In this document: positions 2,670 to 18,466 of the stretch, piece after piece
How positions within the stretch are numbered: position 1 is the stretch's first letter
How the letters are laid out: each line of letters opens with the position of its first letter
Virus record (IMG/VR): IMGVR_UViG_3300028115_001312
Span: 55,430-75,429 of that record
Strand: one strand, 5' to 3'
DNA length: 20,000 nt
Source of the DNA: an uncultured virus (IMG/VR IMGVR_UViG_3300028115_001312)
Taxonomy: Duplodnaviria; Heunggongvirae; Uroviricota; Caudoviricetes
Notes under the pieces: model-generated
Seen by the model: only the letters and a program-made list of their open reading frames with translations
What the model was told of the DNA's origin: nothing
Database searches by the model: none
Translations under genes and position numbers: made by a program

Positions 2670-2975
2670 CTAGTTTGATTCTAATTTAATCTCTAATGGG
2701 TAACCTTGATTTCTTGCACTAAGCAATACTTCTACACCTTTTTGTTCTGCTACTTCAAAAGGAAGTAGGGCAACAACACCAGAACCTTTTTCATTTATTT
2801 CCATTGCTTTTTTGTCTGCATCTGTAGGTTTGTATGAAAATTTATCTACTAAACTTCCTGTAACAAAATCAAATGTAGTTACATTGTCATTTAAATAAAT
2901 GATTTTGTAATCTTTAGGTGGTTCAATATCGTCTAATATTGGTCTGAACTTTTGTTTGATTTCTGTTCCACTCAT
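2670..2975 (-). CDS. clpS: ATP-dependent Clp protease adaptor ClpS
   Basis: PPKDYKIIYLNDNVTTFDFV ... EVAEQK ... ARNQGYPL is collinear with ClpS; AGGAG RBS upstream. Confidence 0.9.
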   Translation of the reverse strand: MSGTEIKQKFRPILDDIEPPKDYKIIYLNDNVTTFDFVTGSLVDKFSYKPTDADKKAMEINEKGSGVVALLPFEVAEQKGVEVLLSARNQGYPLEIKLESN

Positions 2976-2994
2976 GTAAACTCCTGTTATGTTT

Positions 2995-3014
2995 GGGGAG
3001 TATCACTACTCCCC
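2995..3014. other. Perfect 8-bp GC-rich hairpin in the hsp20-clpS spacer
   Basis: GGGGAGTA-TCAC-TACTCCCC with no U-tract on the coding strand. It lies between the TAAATA at 3022-3027 and the clpS RBS. Confidence 0.6.
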
Positions 3015-3033
3015 TCACTAGTATTTACTCGTA

Positions 3034-3471
3034 TTACTTGTTAATTGTAATTTTACGAGGCTTCTTCTCTTCTGGAACTATTCTTTCAAGTTCAATGAAA
3101 AGCATACCATTTTCAAGTTTAGCATCTTGAACAACGATATCATCATTTAGTGTAAACTTACGAGTAAACTTTCTACGTGAAATACCTCTGTGTAATATTT
3201 CACCAGCAAAGTTATTTTCATCAAGTTCTACTGGATTATGGCTAATTGTCATAACATTTTCTGCTACTTCAATGTCCAAGTCTTCCATTTTTACACCTGC
3301 TAGAGCCATTTCAATTTGAAATTTATCTCCGTCTCTTACAATGTTGTAAGGTGGATAGCCAGTACTCTGAGTCTGATGTTCAACATAGTTAAACATATTA
3401 TCAAAGATTCTGTCGAATCCGACGGCATATGGTGTAAGTTTATTGATATCGAGTGAGGTTAATCTTGTCAT
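3034..3471 (-). CDS. Small heat shock protein Hsp20 (IbpA-like)
   Basis: VGFDRIFD, YPPYNIV, IEMALAG, LHRGISRRKFTRKFTL, AKLENGML, IVPEEKKPRKITI; AAGGAG RBS. Confidence 0.95.
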   Translation of the reverse strand: MTRLTSLDINKLTPYAVGFDRIFDNMFNYVEHQTQSTGYPPYNIVRDGDKFQIEMALAGVKMEDLDIEVAENVMTISHNPVELDENNFAGEILHRGISRRKFTRKFTLNDDIVVQDAKLENGMLFIELERIVPEEKKPRKITINK

Positions 3472-3477
3472 TTTGTA

Positions 3478-3556
3478 TCTCCTTTATTAAGCAAGATTTA
3501 ATTTATGAGACCCATAATAGGCATCTCTGTTGTTTTGAGGACTAACCATGATCCTC
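3478..3556 (-). promoter_or_regulatory. ROSE-like RNA thermometer in the hsp20 5' UTR (three hairpins)
   Basis: UCUU(G)CUU-AAUA-AAGGAGA hairpin at 3496-3478 contains the ROSE U(U/C)GCU motif opposite the SD. Upstream hairpins at 3527-3507 and 3556-3537; TAAATA at 3563-3568. Confidence 0.65.
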
Positions 3557-3610
3557 ACGAGTTATTTAAGGTTACTATCCATTCTTGGCCCACGAAATAT
3601 ATTGACTATA

Positions 3611-3660
3611 TTTGACCCTAAGATTGTTTTAGGATGTTTTGTCAAAGTTCCTAACAATCT
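3611..3660 (-). ncRNA. Candidate pseudoknotted RNA between rpsU and hsp20
   Basis: Stem AGAUUGU/ACAAUCU plus UAGGA/UCCUA. Loop UUUGAC (3646-3641) is complementary to downstream GUCAAA (3616-3611). Starts just after the tandem TAAATA at 3666-3675. Confidence 0.4.
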
Positions 3661-3686
3661 ATTCATATTTATTTATTAAAGAAGTT

Positions 3687-3920
3687 CTAATAATTTTCTA
3701 TTTCACGTTGTTTTTTTAACCATCTGGCTCTACCCGCCGCTTTTGCTTTAGCACGTTTTTCGCTAGGCTTAACATAATACTTACGTTTCCTCATTTCTAA
3801 AATAATGCCTTCATCCTGCATTAATCTTTTTAGTTTGCGAATTGCACGAGAAACATCATTGTTTCTTACTTGGACATATAGTCCTTGTTTTTCTCTAGTT
3901 GGTCTTTGTGGTCTTGCCAT
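3687..3920 (-). CDS. rpsU: Ribosomal protein bS21, phage-encoded
   Basis: VQVRNNDVSRAIRKLKR...EGIILEMRKRKYYVKPSEKR matches the bS21 signature; small and basic. Confidence 0.9.
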   Translation of the reverse strand: MARPQRPTREKQGLYVQVRNNDVSRAIRKLKRLMQDEGIILEMRKRKYYVKPSEKRAKAKAAGRARWLKKQREIENY

Positions 3921-4273
3921 TTAGTCATCCATTTTATTAGCGGATCTATAGGATCCTTAACTTCATTTAAATTAAATCGTTTGTACGATTGTTTATTATT
4001 ATAGTAGTAAACTTGTGATTTGTCAATAAAGAAACCTAAAAAAGTTTCATTATATGCACAGTTTAATATACTTATGTCTGCTTGATGGTAAGCAGTAGAA
4101 ATCCATTCTAAATCTTCTTGTTTGTTAGTAGTATATAAAGTAACTTCTATGGGTAATCTTCTAATGTTATCTACTATATTTTCTATATAATCATCACATC
4201 CTATGCAAAGAATACTTGGTGCTTTTGCATAGTATATATCAGGAGGAGTTACTACTGTAACATTATGGTGCAT
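3866..4273 (-). CDS. Hypothetical phage protein
   Basis: 135-aa ORF overlapping both neighbours in the operon (begins VTVVTPPDIYY). Confidence 0.7.
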   Translation of the reverse strand: MHHNVTVVTPPDIYYAKAPSILCIGCDDYIENIVDNIRRLPIEVTLYTTNKQEDLEWISTAYHQADISILNCAYNETFLGFFIDKSQVYYYNNKQSYKRFNLNEVKDPIDPLIKWMTKWQDHKDQLEKNKDYMSK

Positions 4274-5132
4274 TTAATTTTATCCATTGTTTCTTTGTAA
4301 TTACATTTGCTTTGTGATCTAAAATACTATCTTTATCTTTTTTTGTAGGACACATAGTGCAAATTTTATGTGGTTTACCAAAATTTTTTATAAACATAAC
4401 AATCTCATGCAAAGGACTTTCAATTGATATACCCTGGTAATCTGTATATGGTTTCCATTCTTGATTAATAGGTTGTTTCCAGTCATTAAGAACTTTATTT
4501 AATAAGGCAATACTACTGCATTTGTATATCTTACCTTCATAAAGTAAAGGGCAGGTCTGTTGAATACACATATCAAATGCATCCTTAGGATTATTATTGT
4601 GTGGCCACATATTTCCAAAAGTACCTTTATAGGTTTTAAAAAATTGTGTTGGACTGTTAATTTGGAATCTAGTATTATTAGGGCCTATCCAGCGATTTAT
4701 ACCATATTCAGTAACAGGTTTCCATTCATACTTTTTAAAAATATATTCTATTATCGACTTAGCATATGGTTTATCTTCATGTATTGTAAACTTAAACACG
4801 GTATTTCCAACATCAATACACCAATCTAAAACTTCAGGACATTTATGAAAGTTAACTCCGTTTGTTGTAAACCTTATTTGACTATTAGGTAGTAACTGTC
4901 TTACACCATATATCCATTTCTCACAATCTGGGTTAAGAGTTGGTTCTCCTCCCATTATACCAAAATCAGAAATATCTAACCTGTCTATCCATTTTTCTAT
5001 CCAAGACTTACCGTTTTGCCAACTTATACTGCCTTTCATATTATAATCACTATAATTTGAACACCCTGCACAACTTAAATTGCAAGCATATGTAATCATA
5101 GTTTCAACAAAAGGAAGTATAGGCTTACTCAT
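4263..5132 (-). CDS. Radical SAM protein with a C-terminal Cys-containing (SPASM/twitch-like) region
   Basis: CNLSCAGC (CxxxCxxC), GGEPTL, TTNG, and later cysteines CIQQTC, KC, CTMCP. Confidence 0.9.
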   Translation of the reverse strand: MSKPILPFVETMITYACNLSCAGCSNYSDYNMKGSISWQNGKSWIEKWIDRLDISDFGIMGGEPTLNPDCEKWIYGVRQLLPNSQIRFTTNGVNFHKCPEVLDWCIDVGNTVFKFTIHEDKPYAKSIIEYIFKKYEWKPVTEYGINRWIGPNNTRFQINSPTQFFKTYKGTFGNMWPHNNNPKDAFDMCIQQTCPLLYEGKIYKCSSIALLNKVLNDWKQPINQEWKPYTDYQGISIESPLHEIVMFIKNFGKPHKICTMCPTKKDKDSILDHKANVITKKQWIKLNAP

Positions 5133-5440
5133 AACTTAAATTTAACTTCTTCTTGTTCTTGCTCTGTAAGATCATCTATTTCAATATGACCCTGTTTTAC
5201 CAACCAAGTAAGATGTGTTATGTAATCTTCATTTAAGTAAGTATCGGTTGTTTCTTTATCTAATTGCATCCAGTTTGAACCTGTCCAGCGAAATAATTTA
5301 TTAGGTAGTGCATCTACTCTTACAAACAAATCACCTTTATCAGGATACTTGGGAAAAGCAGTACCAAAGTCTGCTTGAGCCGCCTTTTCTAAATCCAGAT
5401 CCGCTACAACGGCTAAATTCGGGGTAGGGATCGTTATGCT
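5129..5440 (-). CDS. -1 frame C-terminal extension of the 5434..7197 protein (103 aa, SITIPTPNL...FGTAFPKYPDKGDLFVRVDALPNKLFRWTGSNW...)
   Basis: The frame of the 5129..5329 track ORF is open back through the A7 run at 5440-5446, with no ATG or strong RBS ahead of the track's TTG start. Confidence 0.7.
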   Translation of the reverse strand, partial: SITIPTPNLAVVADLDLEKAAQADFGTAFPKYPDKGDLFVRVDALPNKLFRWTGSNWMQLDKETTDTYLNEDYITHLTWLVKQGHIEIDDLTEQEQEEVKFKL

Positions 5441-5446
5441 TTTTTT
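5378..5446 (-). promoter_or_regulatory. Putative programmed -1 ribosomal frameshift signal (slippery heptamer plus H-type pseudoknot)
   Basis: A_AAA_AAA in the correct phase, 7-nt spacer, stem1 GAUCC-CUAC / GUAG-C-GGAUC, stem2 AGCCGUU / GGCGGCU. Confidence 0.75.
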
Positions 5447-7197
5447 GGCTCTTCAGGGGTTTCGGTGTTAGCTTCTGCTTCTAAACCTTGTGCAAATTCG
5501 TCTTTTTCAACTAATTGATACTTCTCTGCCATTTTAATAACAACTGCATCACGTCTTTCTATCTCTGCTTCCTGTTCAGCTATCTTCTTTAATAGTTCTT
5601 CTTCACGAGTTTTAAGACCTTCTGCACCTTGTGCTATTTCATCCAGTGTCTTTTTGTAGTTGTCACGTTCTGCTTCTGTTGCAACTACTTTATCAACTAG
5701 TGCATCACTTTCTGCTTTTGCTTCTGCGAGTTGTGCTTCTAAACCAGCAATTTTTTCTACTAGTTCATCACGTTCTTTTTGTAGTTCTGCAAACTTCGCA
5801 GGATCTACATTAGCAAGATTACCATCTAATAGTTTTTCTATTTCTGCTAAGACTTCATTATGTTTTTTAAGTTCCATTTCTAGTTCCTCTACTCTTGGAT
5901 CAGTAACTCTTACGATTTGTTCTTTTACTTTTGGTTTATTTTTTTGGCGGTCTTCTCTCCACCATCCTATTGTCATAGTACCTGCTAGTACTAAACAAAC
6001 TGCAAGTGGATCAAATACTGCAACAATAATTATAATAACCCAACGTACTGCATCTTCTAATAAGTTACGATCTGCTTCACCATATATAAGTTCTGCAATA
6101 TATTTTACAGGACCAACTTCAGCTTCAAACTGTCTATATTCTTTTTCAAATACAAACTTTTCTTCTCTTAATTTGTCTAACTCTGGTTGTACACTTTCTA
6201 TATTTTTTTCTAACTGTACAATCTTTTCATCTACACTATCATTAGTAGTACCTGCTTCTGTAGTATATTTTGCAATATTTGAATTTGCACTATCAATAGT
6301 GCCTTTTATACTGTCACGTATTTTTTGTATACGAACTTCTACTTGGTTAATTTGTTCAGCAAGTTTTTTGTTAATCTCTGTAATTTGTCTTTGTACTCTA
6401 CTTGCGACACCAATCTCATTTTGTTTTGCTTTTGCAATATCAGCATTAAGTTTATCACGTTCAGGCTTTTGTTCTTTACGTAATTGATTACCTTTTGCAA
6501 CATTATCTACATCAGCAGTAAACACACCACCCTTAGTTGTGCCTTGTTTTAAATATGCTTCAACATCTTTGTCCAGTACTGCTAAACGTTTTTCTGCTTG
6601 TGCTATGTCTGCCTTTGTACGATTCTGTGCATCACTTAATCGTTTGTTTTGTTGTGCAATTTCTTTATCTGCTTGTGCTTGTAGGCCAGGTATCTTCGCA
6701 TTTTCTGCATCTATTTGTGGTTGTATTCTATTGTTTGCTTCTTTAATACGATCACGTTCACGTTTTATTAATACATCTAATCTAGTGCTTGTTTCACCCT
6801 GGTTAAGTCTTTTAATATCTTCTGTCCAGCGATTGACTTTGGCTTGTATACGTGCCATCTTTTTGTCAATTACTTCAACTTGTGCAATTTGTTCTGTACC
6901 CATTGCACTTTGTTCAATATGGGACTTAGATAGGAAACCAAATACACCCATGCTTGTGATAAACATAAGAACAACTACTGCAATTACTAGATAACTTTTT
7001 ATTACCATAGGTGCACGATGCCAGTTTTGATGTAACCATACTGTTGCTAGTAGTTTACCTACTTCTAATACACTACCCATTAGGACAATTGGTAAGAAAG
7101 CCGCTGCAAATATTGCAGTAAGTCCAATAATACTATAATACGCAGCAATTATACTGATTGATATAGCAACAAATAATGTGAGGATACCTAAAAACAT
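5434..7197 (-). CDS. Membrane-anchored long coiled-coil protein
   Basis: N-terminal TM helices, a long heptad region, AEVGPVKYIAELIYG...AVRWVIIIIVAVFDPLAV TM segment and an acidic C-terminal coiled coil. Confidence 0.85.
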   Translation of the reverse strand: MFLGILTLFVAISISIIAAYYSIIGLTAIFAAAFLPIVLMGSVLEVGKLLATVWLHQNWHRAPMVIKSYLVIAVVVLMFITSMGVFGFLSKSHIEQSAMGTEQIAQVEVIDKKMARIQAKVNRWTEDIKRLNQGETSTRLDVLIKRERDRIKEANNRIQPQIDAENAKIPGLQAQADKEIAQQNKRLSDAQNRTKADIAQAEKRLAVLDKDVEAYLKQGTTKGGVFTADVDNVAKGNQLRKEQKPERDKLNADIAKAKQNEIGVASRVQRQITEINKKLAEQINQVEVRIQKIRDSIKGTIDSANSNIAKYTTEAGTTNDSVDEKIVQLEKNIESVQPELDKLREEKFVFEKEYRQFEAEVGPVKYIAELIYGEADRNLLEDAVRWVIIIIVAVFDPLAVCLVLAGTMTIGWWREDRQKNKPKVKEQIVRVTDPRVEELEMELKKHNEVLAEIEKLLDGNLANVDPAKFAELQKERDELVEKIAGLEAQLAEAKAESDALVDKVVATEAERDNYKKTLDEIAQGAEGLKTREEELLKKIAEQEAEIERRDAVVIKMAEKYQLVEKDEFAQGLEAEANTETPEEPKKA

Positions 7198-15974: not shown

Positions 15975-16207
15975 CTTAAATAGTCCTCTACACATGCATA
16001 TGATATACCAGGAGGAGAAACAGCTTTACGATTAAGTCCTTCCAGCATACATTCTTCATAACTTTTAAAGTAGTCTAATCCTTTTCCTTCAACATCTCCG
16101 CTAACATCTATACTGACTACTACTAATATATATCCTAAAATTAGAATAATTAATCTCCAAAATAATCCTGTTGCACACCTTCTCGGTAAAGATCTAGTGT
16201 AATACAA
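15971..16207 (-). CDS. Small secreted/membrane protein; true start uncertain, probably near 16150
   Basis: Hydrophobic ILILGYILVVVSI followed by a Cys pair (EEC...YAC), with an ATGA overlap to the glutaredoxin gene. Confidence 0.5.
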   Translation of the reverse strand: MYYTRSLPRRCATGLFWRLIILILGYILVVVSIDVSGDVEGKGLDYFKSYEECMLEGLNRKAVSPPGISYACVEDYLR

Positions 16208-17301
16208 TGTAAACCACCGTCCCAGAAATACCTATGACGCCATGGAACATAAACTGGTTCTACATTGTGTTTTTTTAAAAAACTATTTACCTGTTCGTTA
16301 TTTGGATTTGATACACAACAATGATGTTCGTCTAGCATCAATACGTTAACATCAAATACTGTTTCTTCTACGTAACCTATCCAATCTTGTAACCATGTTT
16401 CTACAAAATGAGTAAACTCATCATTATCTTCCTCACCAGCAAGCCACCACTTTCCTGAATTCTTTTCTTTCAATTTAAGAAATTCATGTACCCTAGTCCA
16501 ACTCTGATCCGGAAGATAACAAACGTCCCATCCTGGAAACGTTTCAGAATATGTTTGTACGTCTGTTAAACTTAATATTGCACCAGGTTTAATTGGGTGA
16601 AAATTTCCGTCGGAATGTCCATCCATAGGTGCTCTTATAATTTCAAATTTATCAAATATAGGATGTAAATTTCTTAGTCCAAAGTCAGTTAAATCCTTTG
16701 GTAACTCATTATCCATATGAAGTGTTGATCCAATATATAATCTTTTTCCTATCATAAAACAATTTGCACTAGATAACATAGTGTAACTAAAATTTAACAA
16801 CTCTTGCCAAACAAAATCATTGAAAAAATTTTTGTTAGTACTATTTTTCTTATAATCTTCCCAACTTGGATAATCACTTCCTGCTATTATATTATAACTG
16901 TTCTCTGTAAATATTAAAGGATATTCTATTCGTTGTTGAAATGTATCTACTCCGCCATACTCCTGCAGTTTAATAGGAATCTGTTGGTGATCATTATTAT
17001 ATGCAAAGCAACTATTACCTAAAACCAATTGGTCGTCTCTTGGTTGGAGTGGTCCACGTGGATAGGTTTGAGGATCATCTAAAAAACGTTGTTTAGGATC
17101 CATATCTGGTTGTATAACCTTTACTCCAAAATCCTGTAATATTTCTTTATACCCGTTTAAGTCTTCTAATGTCTCTTCACATATACGTTTTAATGGATCA
17201 CCAGCCTTATCAGGTATTCCATTAAAGAATTCAGGTGCATAGTTATTGCCTAACATACACACTCGAAGTGGATCCCATTTATTCCATATATTATATTTCA
17301 T
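16150..17301 (-). CDS. Amidinotransferase-family (pentein) protein, paralog 2 (start revised to MKYNIW)
   Basis: WDPL..CMLG, QPRD, GHSDG, FDVNVL, RHRYFWDGGLHCITLDLYR with the catalytic Cys. Confidence 0.88.
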   Translation of the reverse strand: MKYNIWNKWDPLRVCMLGNNYAPEFFNGIPDKAGDPLKRICEETLEDLNGYKEILQDFGVKVIQPDMDPKQRFLDDPQTYPRGPLQPRDDQLVLGNSCFAYNNDHQQIPIKLQEYGGVDTFQQRIEYPLIFTENSYNIIAGSDYPSWEDYKKNSTNKNFFNDFVWQELLNFSYTMLSSANCFMIGKRLYIGSTLHMDNELPKDLTDFGLRNLHPIFDKFEIIRAPMDGHSDGNFHPIKPGAILSLTDVQTYSETFPGWDVCYLPDQSWTRVHEFLKLKEKNSGKWWLAGEEDNDEFTHFVETWLQDWIGYVEETVFDVNVLMLDEHHCCVSNPNNEQVNSFLKKHNVEPVYVPWRHRYFWDGGLHCITLDLYREGVQQDYFGD

Positions 17302-18466
17302 TGAAGTAACTCTGTTGTACACCTTCTCTATATAAGTCTAGAGTAATACAATGTAAACCGCCATCCCAGAAATACCTATGACGCCACGGAACATACACCG
17401 GCTCTACTTTATGTTTTTTTAAAAATGCGTTTACTTGTTCGTTATGTGGATTTGCTACGCAGCAATGATGTTCGTCTAACATTAACACATTTACGTCAAA
17501 TACAGTTTCTTCTACATAGCCTACCCAGTCCTGTAACCAAGTTTCTACAAAGTTTGTAAACTCGTCATTGTCTTCTTCTCCTGCCAGCCACCATTTGCCT
17601 TGATTTTTATTTTTTATTTCTAAAAATGGTTTTACTTTTCTCCAACTTTGGTCAGGTAGATAACATACGTCCCAACCTGGGAATGTCCTAGAGTATTTTT
17701 GTACATCTCGTAAACTTAATATTGCTCCTGGTTTAATAGGATGAAAGTTACCGTCAGTGTGTCCGTCCATAGGAGAAAAATCTATATTAAATTTATCAAA
17801 TCCAGGCAACCCTGCATAATGTTGTTCAGAATACTTATTTTTATGGTATTCAACATTAGACGTATCTACTTCATCTTTTTCCAAACCTATATATAATCTT
17901 TTCCCTATCATAAAAGTTGTAGCACTGCTAAAACCGTGAAGACCATCTGAATAATGTAATAACTCTTCCCAAACAAAATCTGAAAAATAATCTTTATTGT
18001 TTATATTTTCTATATACTGTTCATAGGTAGGAAAATCTGCACCTTTTATAAAATTATAACTATCTTTATCTTTATAAAAAGGAATACTTCTTTTAATATC
18101 AGAAGAATAGGACACAGGCCCGTATTCCTTTAACTTATCTATAATTGCTGGATGATCACCTTCGTTTACAAAACATGTGTTTGCTAAAACTAATTGGAAA
18201 TCTCTTGGTTGGAGAGGCCCACGTGGATATCTACTAGGATTATCTATAAAACGTTCAGACCTATCCATATCAGGTTGTATAACTTTGACACCAAAGTCTT
18301 GAAGTATCTGTTTAAAACCTTGTAAATCTTCAAGTGTTTCTTCACAGATACGTTTTAATGGATCGCCTGCTTTGTCCGGTATTCCGTTAAAAAACTCTGG
18401 CGCATAGTTATTACCAAGCATACAAACCTTAAGTGGATCCCATTTATTCCATATGTTATACTTCAT
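17291..18466 (-). CDS. Amidinotransferase-family (pentein) protein, paralog 1
   Basis: Same motifs: WDPLK, QPRD, GHTDG, GGLHCITLD. Confidence 0.88.
   Translation of the reverse strand: MKYNIWNKWDPLKVCMLGNNYAPEFFNGIPDKAGDPLKRICEETLEDLQGFKQILQDFGVKVIQPDMDRSERFIDNPSRYPRGPLQPRDFQLVLANTCFVNEGDHPAIIDKLKEYGPVSYSSDIKRSIPFYKDKDSYNFIKGADFPTYEQYIENINNKDYFSDFVWEELLHYSDGLHGFSSATTFMIGKRLYIGLEKDEVDTSNVEYHKNKYSEQHYAGLPGFDKFNIDFSPMDGHTDGNFHPIKPGAILSLRDVQKYSRTFPGWDVCYLPDQSWRKVKPFLEIKNKNQGKWWLAGEEDNDEFTNFVETWLQDWVGYVEETVFDVNVLMLDEHHCCVANPHNEQVNAFLKKHKVEPVYVPWRHRYFWDGGLHCITLDLYREGVQQSYFNEI

Follow-up and report, generated by a model that had tools for sequence, protein, structure and literature searches.

How the end of a membrane-protein gene is read in an uncultured virus of the Caudoviricetes (IMG/VR record IMGVR_UViG_3300028115_001312) is the question addressed here. 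The window, i.e., the whole stretch of 20,000 nucleotides that was analysed (positions 55,430 to 75,429 of that record), carries on its minus strand an open reading frame (ORF) for a 587-aa protein which ends shortly after a run of seven A's and is followed, in the -1 frame, by a long stretch free of stop codons. A preliminary description made from the letters of the window had attributed this arrangement to a -1 ribosomal frameshift that is stimulated by an RNA pseudoknot and yields two forms of a membrane coiled-coil protein. Judged by comparison with homologous genes, the A_AAA_AAA site at the end of the ORF is very likely to be a programmed -1 ribosomal frameshift signal that adds an optional end domain to the protein, and we give this reading a probability of roughly 0.85.

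Reading-frame layout of the locus

The elements at the junction of the two frames are the following.

5434..7197 (-): 0-frame ORF P0001, 587 aa; its end reads GAG CCA AAA AAA GCA TAA (protein tail ...EEPKKA)
5440..5446 (-): slippery heptamer A_AAA_AAA, an in-phase X_XXY_YYZ motif, CC[A AAA AAA] GCA TAA
5433..5439 (-): spacer of 7 nt, in which one sense codon and the 0-frame stop TAA (5436-5434) are located
5129..5446 (-): -1 frame extension P0002, 105 codons plus TGA; 103 codons follow KK; begins KKSITIPTPNL...

When the sequence was read again, the coordinates of heptamer, spacer, stems and frames in the preliminary description all proved correct, as did the 103 open codons of the -1 frame (105 if counted from 5446, 103 after KK). 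The predicted trans-frame product comprises residues 1-586 of P0001 plus 103 residues, which gives a protein of 689 aa. It had also been noted that the extension has no good start codon of its own, and indeed the first start codon of the -1 frame in the window is a TTG at 5329, within the conserved domain. Gene callers and the ESM Atlas list a 66-aa ORF starting at this TTG (5129-5329, minus strand), which corresponds to the back part of the extension only, and close relatives of the 587-aa ORF carry the JGI label 'chromosome segregation ATPase'. Both the short ORF and this name look like annotation artefacts.

The GC content around the junction is 0.40-0.41 versus about 0.28-0.33 in the flanks. 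Taken by itself the heptamer is at chance level: AAAAAAR is seen 27 times in the window with 29 occurrences expected, and its 27 ORFs hold 38 in-phase X_XXY_YYZ heptamers. Seven of these 38 are A_AAA_AAA (the site itself included) and none is A_AAA_AAG, the heptamer at which shifting is strongest in E. coli. The window contains no tRNA genes bearing on lysine decoding.

Conservation of the junction among relatives

Searches with the extension peptide yielded 3 viral contigs and 46 metagenome loci. Three loci (L073, L078, L079) were left out because their contigs start past the junction, and the junction set thus comprises the window, 43 metagenome loci and 3 viral loci (n = 47; 37 distinct). 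Alignment of homologous genes, a check proposed in the preliminary description, reveals an in-phase slippery heptamer in 47/47 junctions. It reads A_AAA_AAA in 23 of them, A_AAA_AAG in another 23 and C_CCA_AAG in one, all at the same alignment columns. Likewise, the -1 frame runs on into the homologous domain in every one of the 47 junctions. The 0-frame stop is located 3 nt past the heptamer in 46 cases and immediately after it in L076, and the spacer between heptamer and stem 1 measures 7 nt in 37/37 distinct sequences. Contigs extend to the stop of the -1 frame in 44 junctions; 43 of these have 100-114 open codons in this frame, L072 being the exception.

The junction of L076, GA[C CCA AAG] TAG, offers an alternative valid heptamer that still lies 7 nt ahead of stem 1. 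The extension of this locus is among the most divergent found, with 67% identity to that of the window (L074, 64%; L075, 63%), and the same junction is present in the viral contig L084. In E. coli, A_AAA_AAG and C_CCA_AAG both rank among the highly shift-prone heptamers (Atkins et al. 2016, PMC5009743). The codon ahead of the heptamer varies among relatives (Pro CCA, Glu GAA, Ser TCA, and Asp GAC in L076); its last base always fits the heptamer, which argues for a constraint at the nucleotide level. A Shine-Dalgarno-like stimulator was sought about 10 nt upstream of the heptamer; the relatives share no AGGAGG-like element there because the 12 nt ahead of the heptamer vary. The predicted signal is raised above chance by a heptamer, phase, spacer and stems that are kept in 37 distinct relatives.

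The length of the A-run was a second concern of the preliminary description, which had asked for A7 to be distinguished from A8. Two loci (L035, L036) represent other assemblies, and their junction is identical to that of the window. Moreover, contigs of the DNA runs X8 and X13 and of the RNA-library runs X9 and X11 span positions 5440-5446 without an inserted or missing letter; the evidence from runs consists of contigs only, in which rare A8 variants and the expression level are not visible. Assembly error at the A-run is excluded. Runs in which the stretch is present include some labelled as salt marsh and seawater metagenome.

A structured RNA downstream of the heptamer

Structure was studied with alignment A3, which holds the 37 distinct junctions over 106 nt.

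5424..5432 (-): stem 1, 5' arm GAUCCCUAC; found by RNAalifold unaided, 100% of cells paired
5398..5407 (-): stem 1, 3' arm GUAGCGGAUC; bulged C at 5403; codes for V-A-D-L
5408..5414 (-): stem 2, 5' arm, within the loop of stem 1; conserved core 5413-5408
5378..5384 (-): stem 2, 3' arm; conserved core 5384-5379, GGCGGC; codes for K-A-A

Without being given a hint, RNAalifold recovered stem 1 as it had been drawn before, with 9 pairs and one bulge, and this stem is paired in every cell across the 37 sequences. Its pair 22-54 covaries, being A-U in 19, G-C in 15 and G-U in 3 sequences, and two other stem 1 pairs change on one side only, from C-G to U-G or from A-U to G-U. A tree was built from 216 columns downstream of the structure with 36 of the 37 rows (L077 was omitted because its contig ends). 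In this tree the G-U and G-C states of pair 22-54 arise inside the window's well-supported 11-row clade, and the pair has therefore changed at least twice. Sliding the 3' partners by 1-3 columns made the pairing fall from 92% to 29-49%.

The stem 1 hairpin alone has a folding energy of -11 kcal/mol (z -4.3 versus shuffles). Stretches of 55 nt and 87 nt fold no better than shuffles, yet the program is unable to score pseudoknots, and the energies of the long stretches thus neither support nor refute stem 2. Loop 1 is variable in length and sequence. A version of stem 1 lengthened by two pairs was rejected as specific to a subclade, since the added pairs form in only 21/37 and 16/37 sequences. 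A search of positions 5200-5600 of the window for Rfam frameshift elements up to an E value of 10 found none; the two rows returned were chance-level matches to unrelated families.

For stem 2 the preliminary description had proposed 7 bp. The core of this stem is kept: taken as 6 pairs it is 92.8% paired, with a conserved core of 5-6 bp. One of its pairs is C-G in 34, A-U in 2 and U-G in 1 of the 37 sequences, and the A-U state, found in L074 and L075, goes back to a compensating pair of synonymous changes, one from GCC to GCA and the other from GCG to GCT. Another pair is U-G in 20 and C-G in 17 sequences. The outer pair of the original proposal did not stand, and we therefore describe stem 2 as a stem of 5-6 bp which, judging from the alignment, probably closes stem 1 into an H-type pseudoknot.

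Constraint on the codons of the extension

The two stems are coding sequence, and their codons were analysed in 39 distinct full-length extensions. Five stem codons are nearly fixed, namely CCT (39/39), GTA (39/39), GCG (39/39), a second GCG (37/39) and GCC (33/36); the invariant GTA and GCG belong to the 3' arm of stem 1, and the GCG present in 37/39 belongs to the 3' arm of stem 2. Their entropy is 0-0.49 bits compared with a mean of 1.46 bits for the 24 other conserved codons that have at least 4 synonyms (Mann-Whitney p 0.0004), while the Leu codon right after stem 1 varies freely (1.84 bits). GCG and GCC each make up 4% of the Ala codons in the 27 ORFs of the window, and the local GC-rich patch is thus made of rare codons that are held fixed. 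Outside the stems the amino acids of the extension are conserved while synonymous sites change freely. The amino-acid identity of 63-100% to the window's extension, together with the abundant synonymous change, points to purifying selection on the encoded peptide.

Points against a programmed frameshift

Several observations weigh against this reading or parts of it. In-phase heptamers are frequent in this AT-rich DNA. Contigs drop rare variants, so that a minority of A8 transcripts would be compatible with the data. Additional 0-frame stops occur 76, 444 and 86 codons upstream of the junction in L048, L055 and L059, respectively, and L072 has a TAG at extension codon 78; these extra stops suggest that some members are damaged or mis-assembled. 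In the shuffle control of the covariation, which does not correct for relatedness, 36 of 500 shuffles attained the observed level of pairs changed on both sides. In L043 an alternative local fold comes near stem 1 in energy. As for stem 2, 30 of the 37 relatives lack its outermost pair (5414/5378), and RNAalifold predicts a weak rival hairpin over its 3' bases that is always pairable and shows no double changes. The compensatory change in stem 2 represents one event in two close relatives (L074, L075), and support for this stem is for this reason moderate.

Alternative explanations

Transcriptional slippage is the alternative that survives best, albeit as an improbable one. RNA polymerase would add one A, and a share of the mRNAs would then encode an in-frame fusion, a coding outcome that is the same as that of a -1 shift. 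The run of the window itself, A7, is in favour of this possibility, and a second clade of the family, which has a conserved A9G without downstream structure (see below), would suit slippage as well. Efficient slippage of bacterial RNA polymerase, however, needs runs of about 8-9 or more, whereas 23 of the 47 junctions hold only six A's (A6G) and L076 and L084 read CCCAAAG. Furthermore, strict phase, a fixed 7-nt spacer and a covarying stem are needs of a ribosomal signal and not of a polymerase, and the contigs from two RNA libraries carry A7.

According to a second and still less probable alternative, the extension would be a separate protein, whose translation would begin at an unusual start codon or by reinitiation once the 0-frame stop has been passed. 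The gene that follows the extension bears on this model.

4263..5132 (-): next gene, radical SAM protein; its ATG lies within the overlap with the extension's TGA

The TGA of the extension (5131-5129) overlaps the ATG (5132) of this gene as ATGA, and such an overlap shows tight translational coupling in the operon. The 66-aa TTG-start fragment of gene callers and the ESM Atlas would also fit a separate protein, as would some short representatives of the domain family (110-157 aa) that begin with M and whose DNA context is not visible. Yet there is no ATG, GTG or TTG before codon 40 in the window, nor before codons 65-72 in relatives, positions that already fall within the conserved domain, and the codons beside the stop differ among relatives, with no shared start. 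A separate protein also leaves the conserved in-phase heptamer and the in-frame fusions unexplained.

The least probable alternative is a decaying or mis-assembled gene, in which a one-base homopolymer deletion split a fusion and the part beyond the deletion has ceased to be produced. Homopolymers are error-prone, and the family started out from an in-frame fusion, but the frame change is found in 47/47 junctions from many assemblies and with three heptamers, the extension is under purifying selection (63-100% identity despite abundant synonymous change), and the contigs of four runs show no indel.

Proposed mechanism

Returning to a programmed ribosomal frameshift, we propose that ribosomes would reach CC A AAA AAA with two lysine tRNAs in the P and A sites, at a point where the structured RNA 7 nt downstream (a 9-bp bulged stem, probably pseudoknotted) would resist unwinding, and that a fraction of them would slip back by one base. 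Ribosomes that do not slip would read one more codon and the stop and thus produce the 587-aa protein. Those that slip would read 103 more codons and produce a 689-aa protein equipped with a disordered linker and a beta+alpha domain of about 85 residues, the frameshift cassette being written into the linker codons. We infer the slipping, its efficiency, and the roles of stem 2 and of the nearby conserved stop from the layout.

Protein architecture and the end domain

Parts of the predicted protein to which the following refers are listed below.

6922..7197 (-): membrane block at the N-terminus (residues 1-92), where conservation within the family is highest
5962..6054 (-): residues 382-412, the fourth hydrophobic segment; the next 15 residues include 6 K/R
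5132..5386 (-): C-domain, residues 21-105 of P0002, folded in the AlphaFold2 model into four beta strands and, after these, two helices

A crude Kyte-Doolittle scan of P0001 gave hydrophobic blocks at residues 1-55, 61-92 and 382-412. A coiled-coil-like loop of 286 residues precedes the last of these, and a second coiled-coil-like region extends from there to the end. Based on the positive-inside rule, the K/R-rich stretch past residues 382-412 suggests that the C-terminal part is probably cytoplasmic. Residues 1-130 of P0001 have 6472 homologous proteins at E<=1e-5. By tblastn, the N-terminal membrane part matches hypothetical proteins of Pelagibacter phage Mosig and of several jumbo phages; the Mosig homologue has 326 aa and is devoid of the later parts.

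The AlphaFold2 model of P0002 (87 sequences) has a mean pLDDT of 71.5, with values of 73-84 per ten-residue block from residue 21 onwards. The residues predicted to be disordered (1-20) are exactly those encoded by the frameshift cassette. An earlier model of the C-domain computed from 33 sequences was discarded (pLDDT 59, no Foldseek match). The 87-sequence model, too, had no Foldseek match at E<=0.001, and its best VIA-align Z of 4.1 lies inside the noise range stated for that tool. The beta core aligns at low Z with tailspikes, in their N-terminal parts, and with Mtd; these alignments are leads only, and so is the nearest named cluster in the ESM Atlas, Mtd_N (score 0.76). A sequence search of the PDB with the domain profile gave nothing below E 0.48, and tblastn with P0002 against 50,697 phage records gave no match at 1e-3. 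When the domain of L015 was used in tblastn, marginal matches (E 5e-3 to 2e-2) were obtained in virion structural proteins of RaK2 and PA5oct. The matching genes (L082 of RaK2, 1268-2728; L083 of PA5oct, 1700-2791) lie directly upstream of a tail sheath gene, and the PA5oct protein is annotated as detected by ESI-MS/MS.

The C-domain profile finds 1188 representatives at E<=1e-3, most of which are C-terminal ends of proteins of 110-730 aa. P0002 matches phrog_11591 ('virion structural protein') at positions 413-484 of 497 with an E value of 6.9e-6, and in-frame homologues match positions 409-470. This match reflects, on the present alignments, a shared end domain and not whole-protein membership. 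In-frame homologues also match Pfam DUF4407 (PF14362) over the coiled coil and the fourth membrane segment, with 15-24.2 bits (best E 2.4e-5), i.e., below the cut-off of 31.3 bits; P0001 itself had no hit to DUF4407. The beta core of about 40 residues occurs in 6-20 tandem copies in proteins of 614-2895 aa (P0125-P0132, P0134 and P0219). Seven of these (P0125-P0128, P0130, P0131 and P0219) were scanned; DUF2793 is present in three, and the seven match PHROG families of tail protein, tail fiber, head-tail adaptor and virion structural protein. Our best guess is that the C-domain is a binding module shared with virion proteins.

In-frame fusions and a second frameshifted clade

The preliminary description had also suggested a search for naturally fused versions, and these exist in more distant relatives. 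P0003 (445 aa) combines the N-terminal membrane part (41-45% identity; 41% for the N-terminal block over residues 8-193) with the end domain in one frame. A set of 26 viral loci at greater distance contains 24 single ORFs of about 450-700 aa, one locus truncated at the contig end and one with a break near the N-terminus. A further 77 loci comprise 65 in-frame fusions, 8 loci cut by contig ends, one member of the window's clade (L084) and 3 members of a second frameshifted clade. In L027 the frame breaks in the N-terminal membrane part, which may reflect a damaged gene or an assembly error. L009, the nearest in-frame relative examined, has ordinary AT-rich codons at the stem sites and no GC-rich stems. 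The 120 closest N-terminal relatives among the matches listed have 371-610 aa; none is near 689 aa, from which it follows that no close relative among them is fused in frame.

Since distant homologues have the long form in a single frame, it represents the ancestral architecture. The frameshift would therefore make the end domain optional and set the ratio of the two forms. The predicted frameshift defines an abundant clade within the family.

In the second clade (L090, L118, L132 and L161-L171) a -1 frame change occurs soon after the fourth membrane segment. Its site, CTA AAA AAA AAG TTC (A9G; e.g., L161:1501-1525), is common to at least 12 contigs, with exactly nine A's in 11/11 pattern matches. 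The -1 frame has a stop 1-5 codons ahead of the run and then continues for 189-226 aa through the C-domain, while the 0 frame meets a stop 17-19 codons after a GAA codon that lies two codons before the A-run. The RNAalifold consensus structure downstream of A9G has 0 pairs. Both a ribosomal shift and transcriptional slippage are possible at this site, and the second clade suggests repeated selection for rationing the end domain.

It is tempting to speculate, though we hold the idea only tentatively, that -1 recoding evolved at least twice in this family and at two sites, each time making the virion-protein-like end domain sub-stoichiometric: by a heptamer and pseudoknot at the end of the second coiled coil in the window's clade, and by A9G without conserved structure elsewhere. 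If this were true, the ratio of subunits with the domain to those without it would itself be under selection in a membrane-anchored coiled-coil assembly, resembling the G/GT ratio in tail assembly and perhaps serving the docking of virion parts at the membrane.

Genome context

The viral contig from which the window derives measures 75 kb; the record is incomplete, its completeness being estimated at 22%. Neighbours of the gene include those for ribosomal protein S21, Hsp20, ClpS, an IMPDH/GMP-reductase-like enzyme, glutaredoxin, a cell-wall hydrolase and a PAAR-like protein. The host-like genes for the ClpS adaptor, Hsp20 and ribosomal protein S21 are arranged in a row at 2670-3920 (minus strand), and the IMPDH/GMP-reductase-like gene is located at 1533-2654. 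Two adjacent, slightly overlapping ORFs at 16150-17322 and 17291-18466 (minus strand; 390 and 391 aa) match phrog_25854 with their C-terminal parts and look like a tandem duplication.

Comparison with known systems

The frameshifts known from phages mostly affect tail chaperones, capsid proteins and a few enzymes. The present case would add to them a family of membrane proteins with high abundance in marine and salt-marsh metagenomes; literature searches at the level of listings and abstracts gave no description of this gene or of a frameshift in a jumbo-phage membrane protein. The putative stimulatory RNA is compact and absent from Rfam, and the natural heptamer swaps and compensatory stem variants provide a ready-made mutant series. 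In addition, in-frame relatives, the pseudoknot clade and the A9G clade together form a natural experiment on rationing a C-terminal domain. For annotation the consequence would be that gene callers truncate the protein at 587 aa and call a spurious 66-aa ORF.

In the tail-chaperone pair G/GT of lambda and many tailed phages, a -1 shift is conserved across diverged phages (PMC5009743). The locus described here is similar in that a -1 shift near the end of a phage gene would yield a short and a longer form with a common N-terminal part. However, the gene has no sequence relation to G/GT and is not located beside a tape-measure gene, the protein is membrane-anchored, the wider family is mostly fused in frame, and the structure 3' of the heptamer covaries. 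P0001 and P0002 have no Pfam or PHROG tail-chaperone match, and the neighbours are the radical SAM gene and a phrog_8198 gene. We thus agree with the preliminary description that the protein is not a tail chaperone, as neither a chaperone family match nor adjoining tail genes were found.

The frameshift in dnaX of E. coli, which gives rise to gamma and tau, shortens the protein, whereas the shift proposed here lengthens it. Its signal consists of A_AAA_AAG, an upstream Shine-Dalgarno-like element and a 3' hairpin (PMC5009743). Both sites share the same heptamer class, decoding by lysine tRNA and a 3' stem a few bases downstream; by contrast, the signal here is devoid of a conserved upstream Shine-Dalgarno-like element, and its 3' element is probably a pseudoknot.

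Capsid proteins extended by frameshifting are described for gene 10 of T7 and T3, the Listeria phages A118 and A500, and Lactobacillus phage A2 (PMC5009743). As in these examples, frameshifting would provide a fraction of the copies with an extra C-terminal domain. Those proteins are major capsid proteins, whereas the one studied here is a membrane protein, and the domain added to it has relatives among the repeats of tail and virion proteins. In the case of DUF4407 and phrog_11591 the resemblance is limited, with bit scores below the Pfam cut-off for the former and only 72 of 497 positions matched in the latter.

In pea enation mosaic virus (PEMV) a stop codon exactly 3 nt past the heptamer is needed for frameshifting (PMC5009743). 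A stop is found at the same place in 46/47 junctions of the present set, although PEMV is a eukaryotic RNA virus and the stop of L076 directly follows the heptamer. The proposed mechanism is that of a classical bacterial -1 signal, and its predicted outcome resembles G/GT or the capsid extensions.

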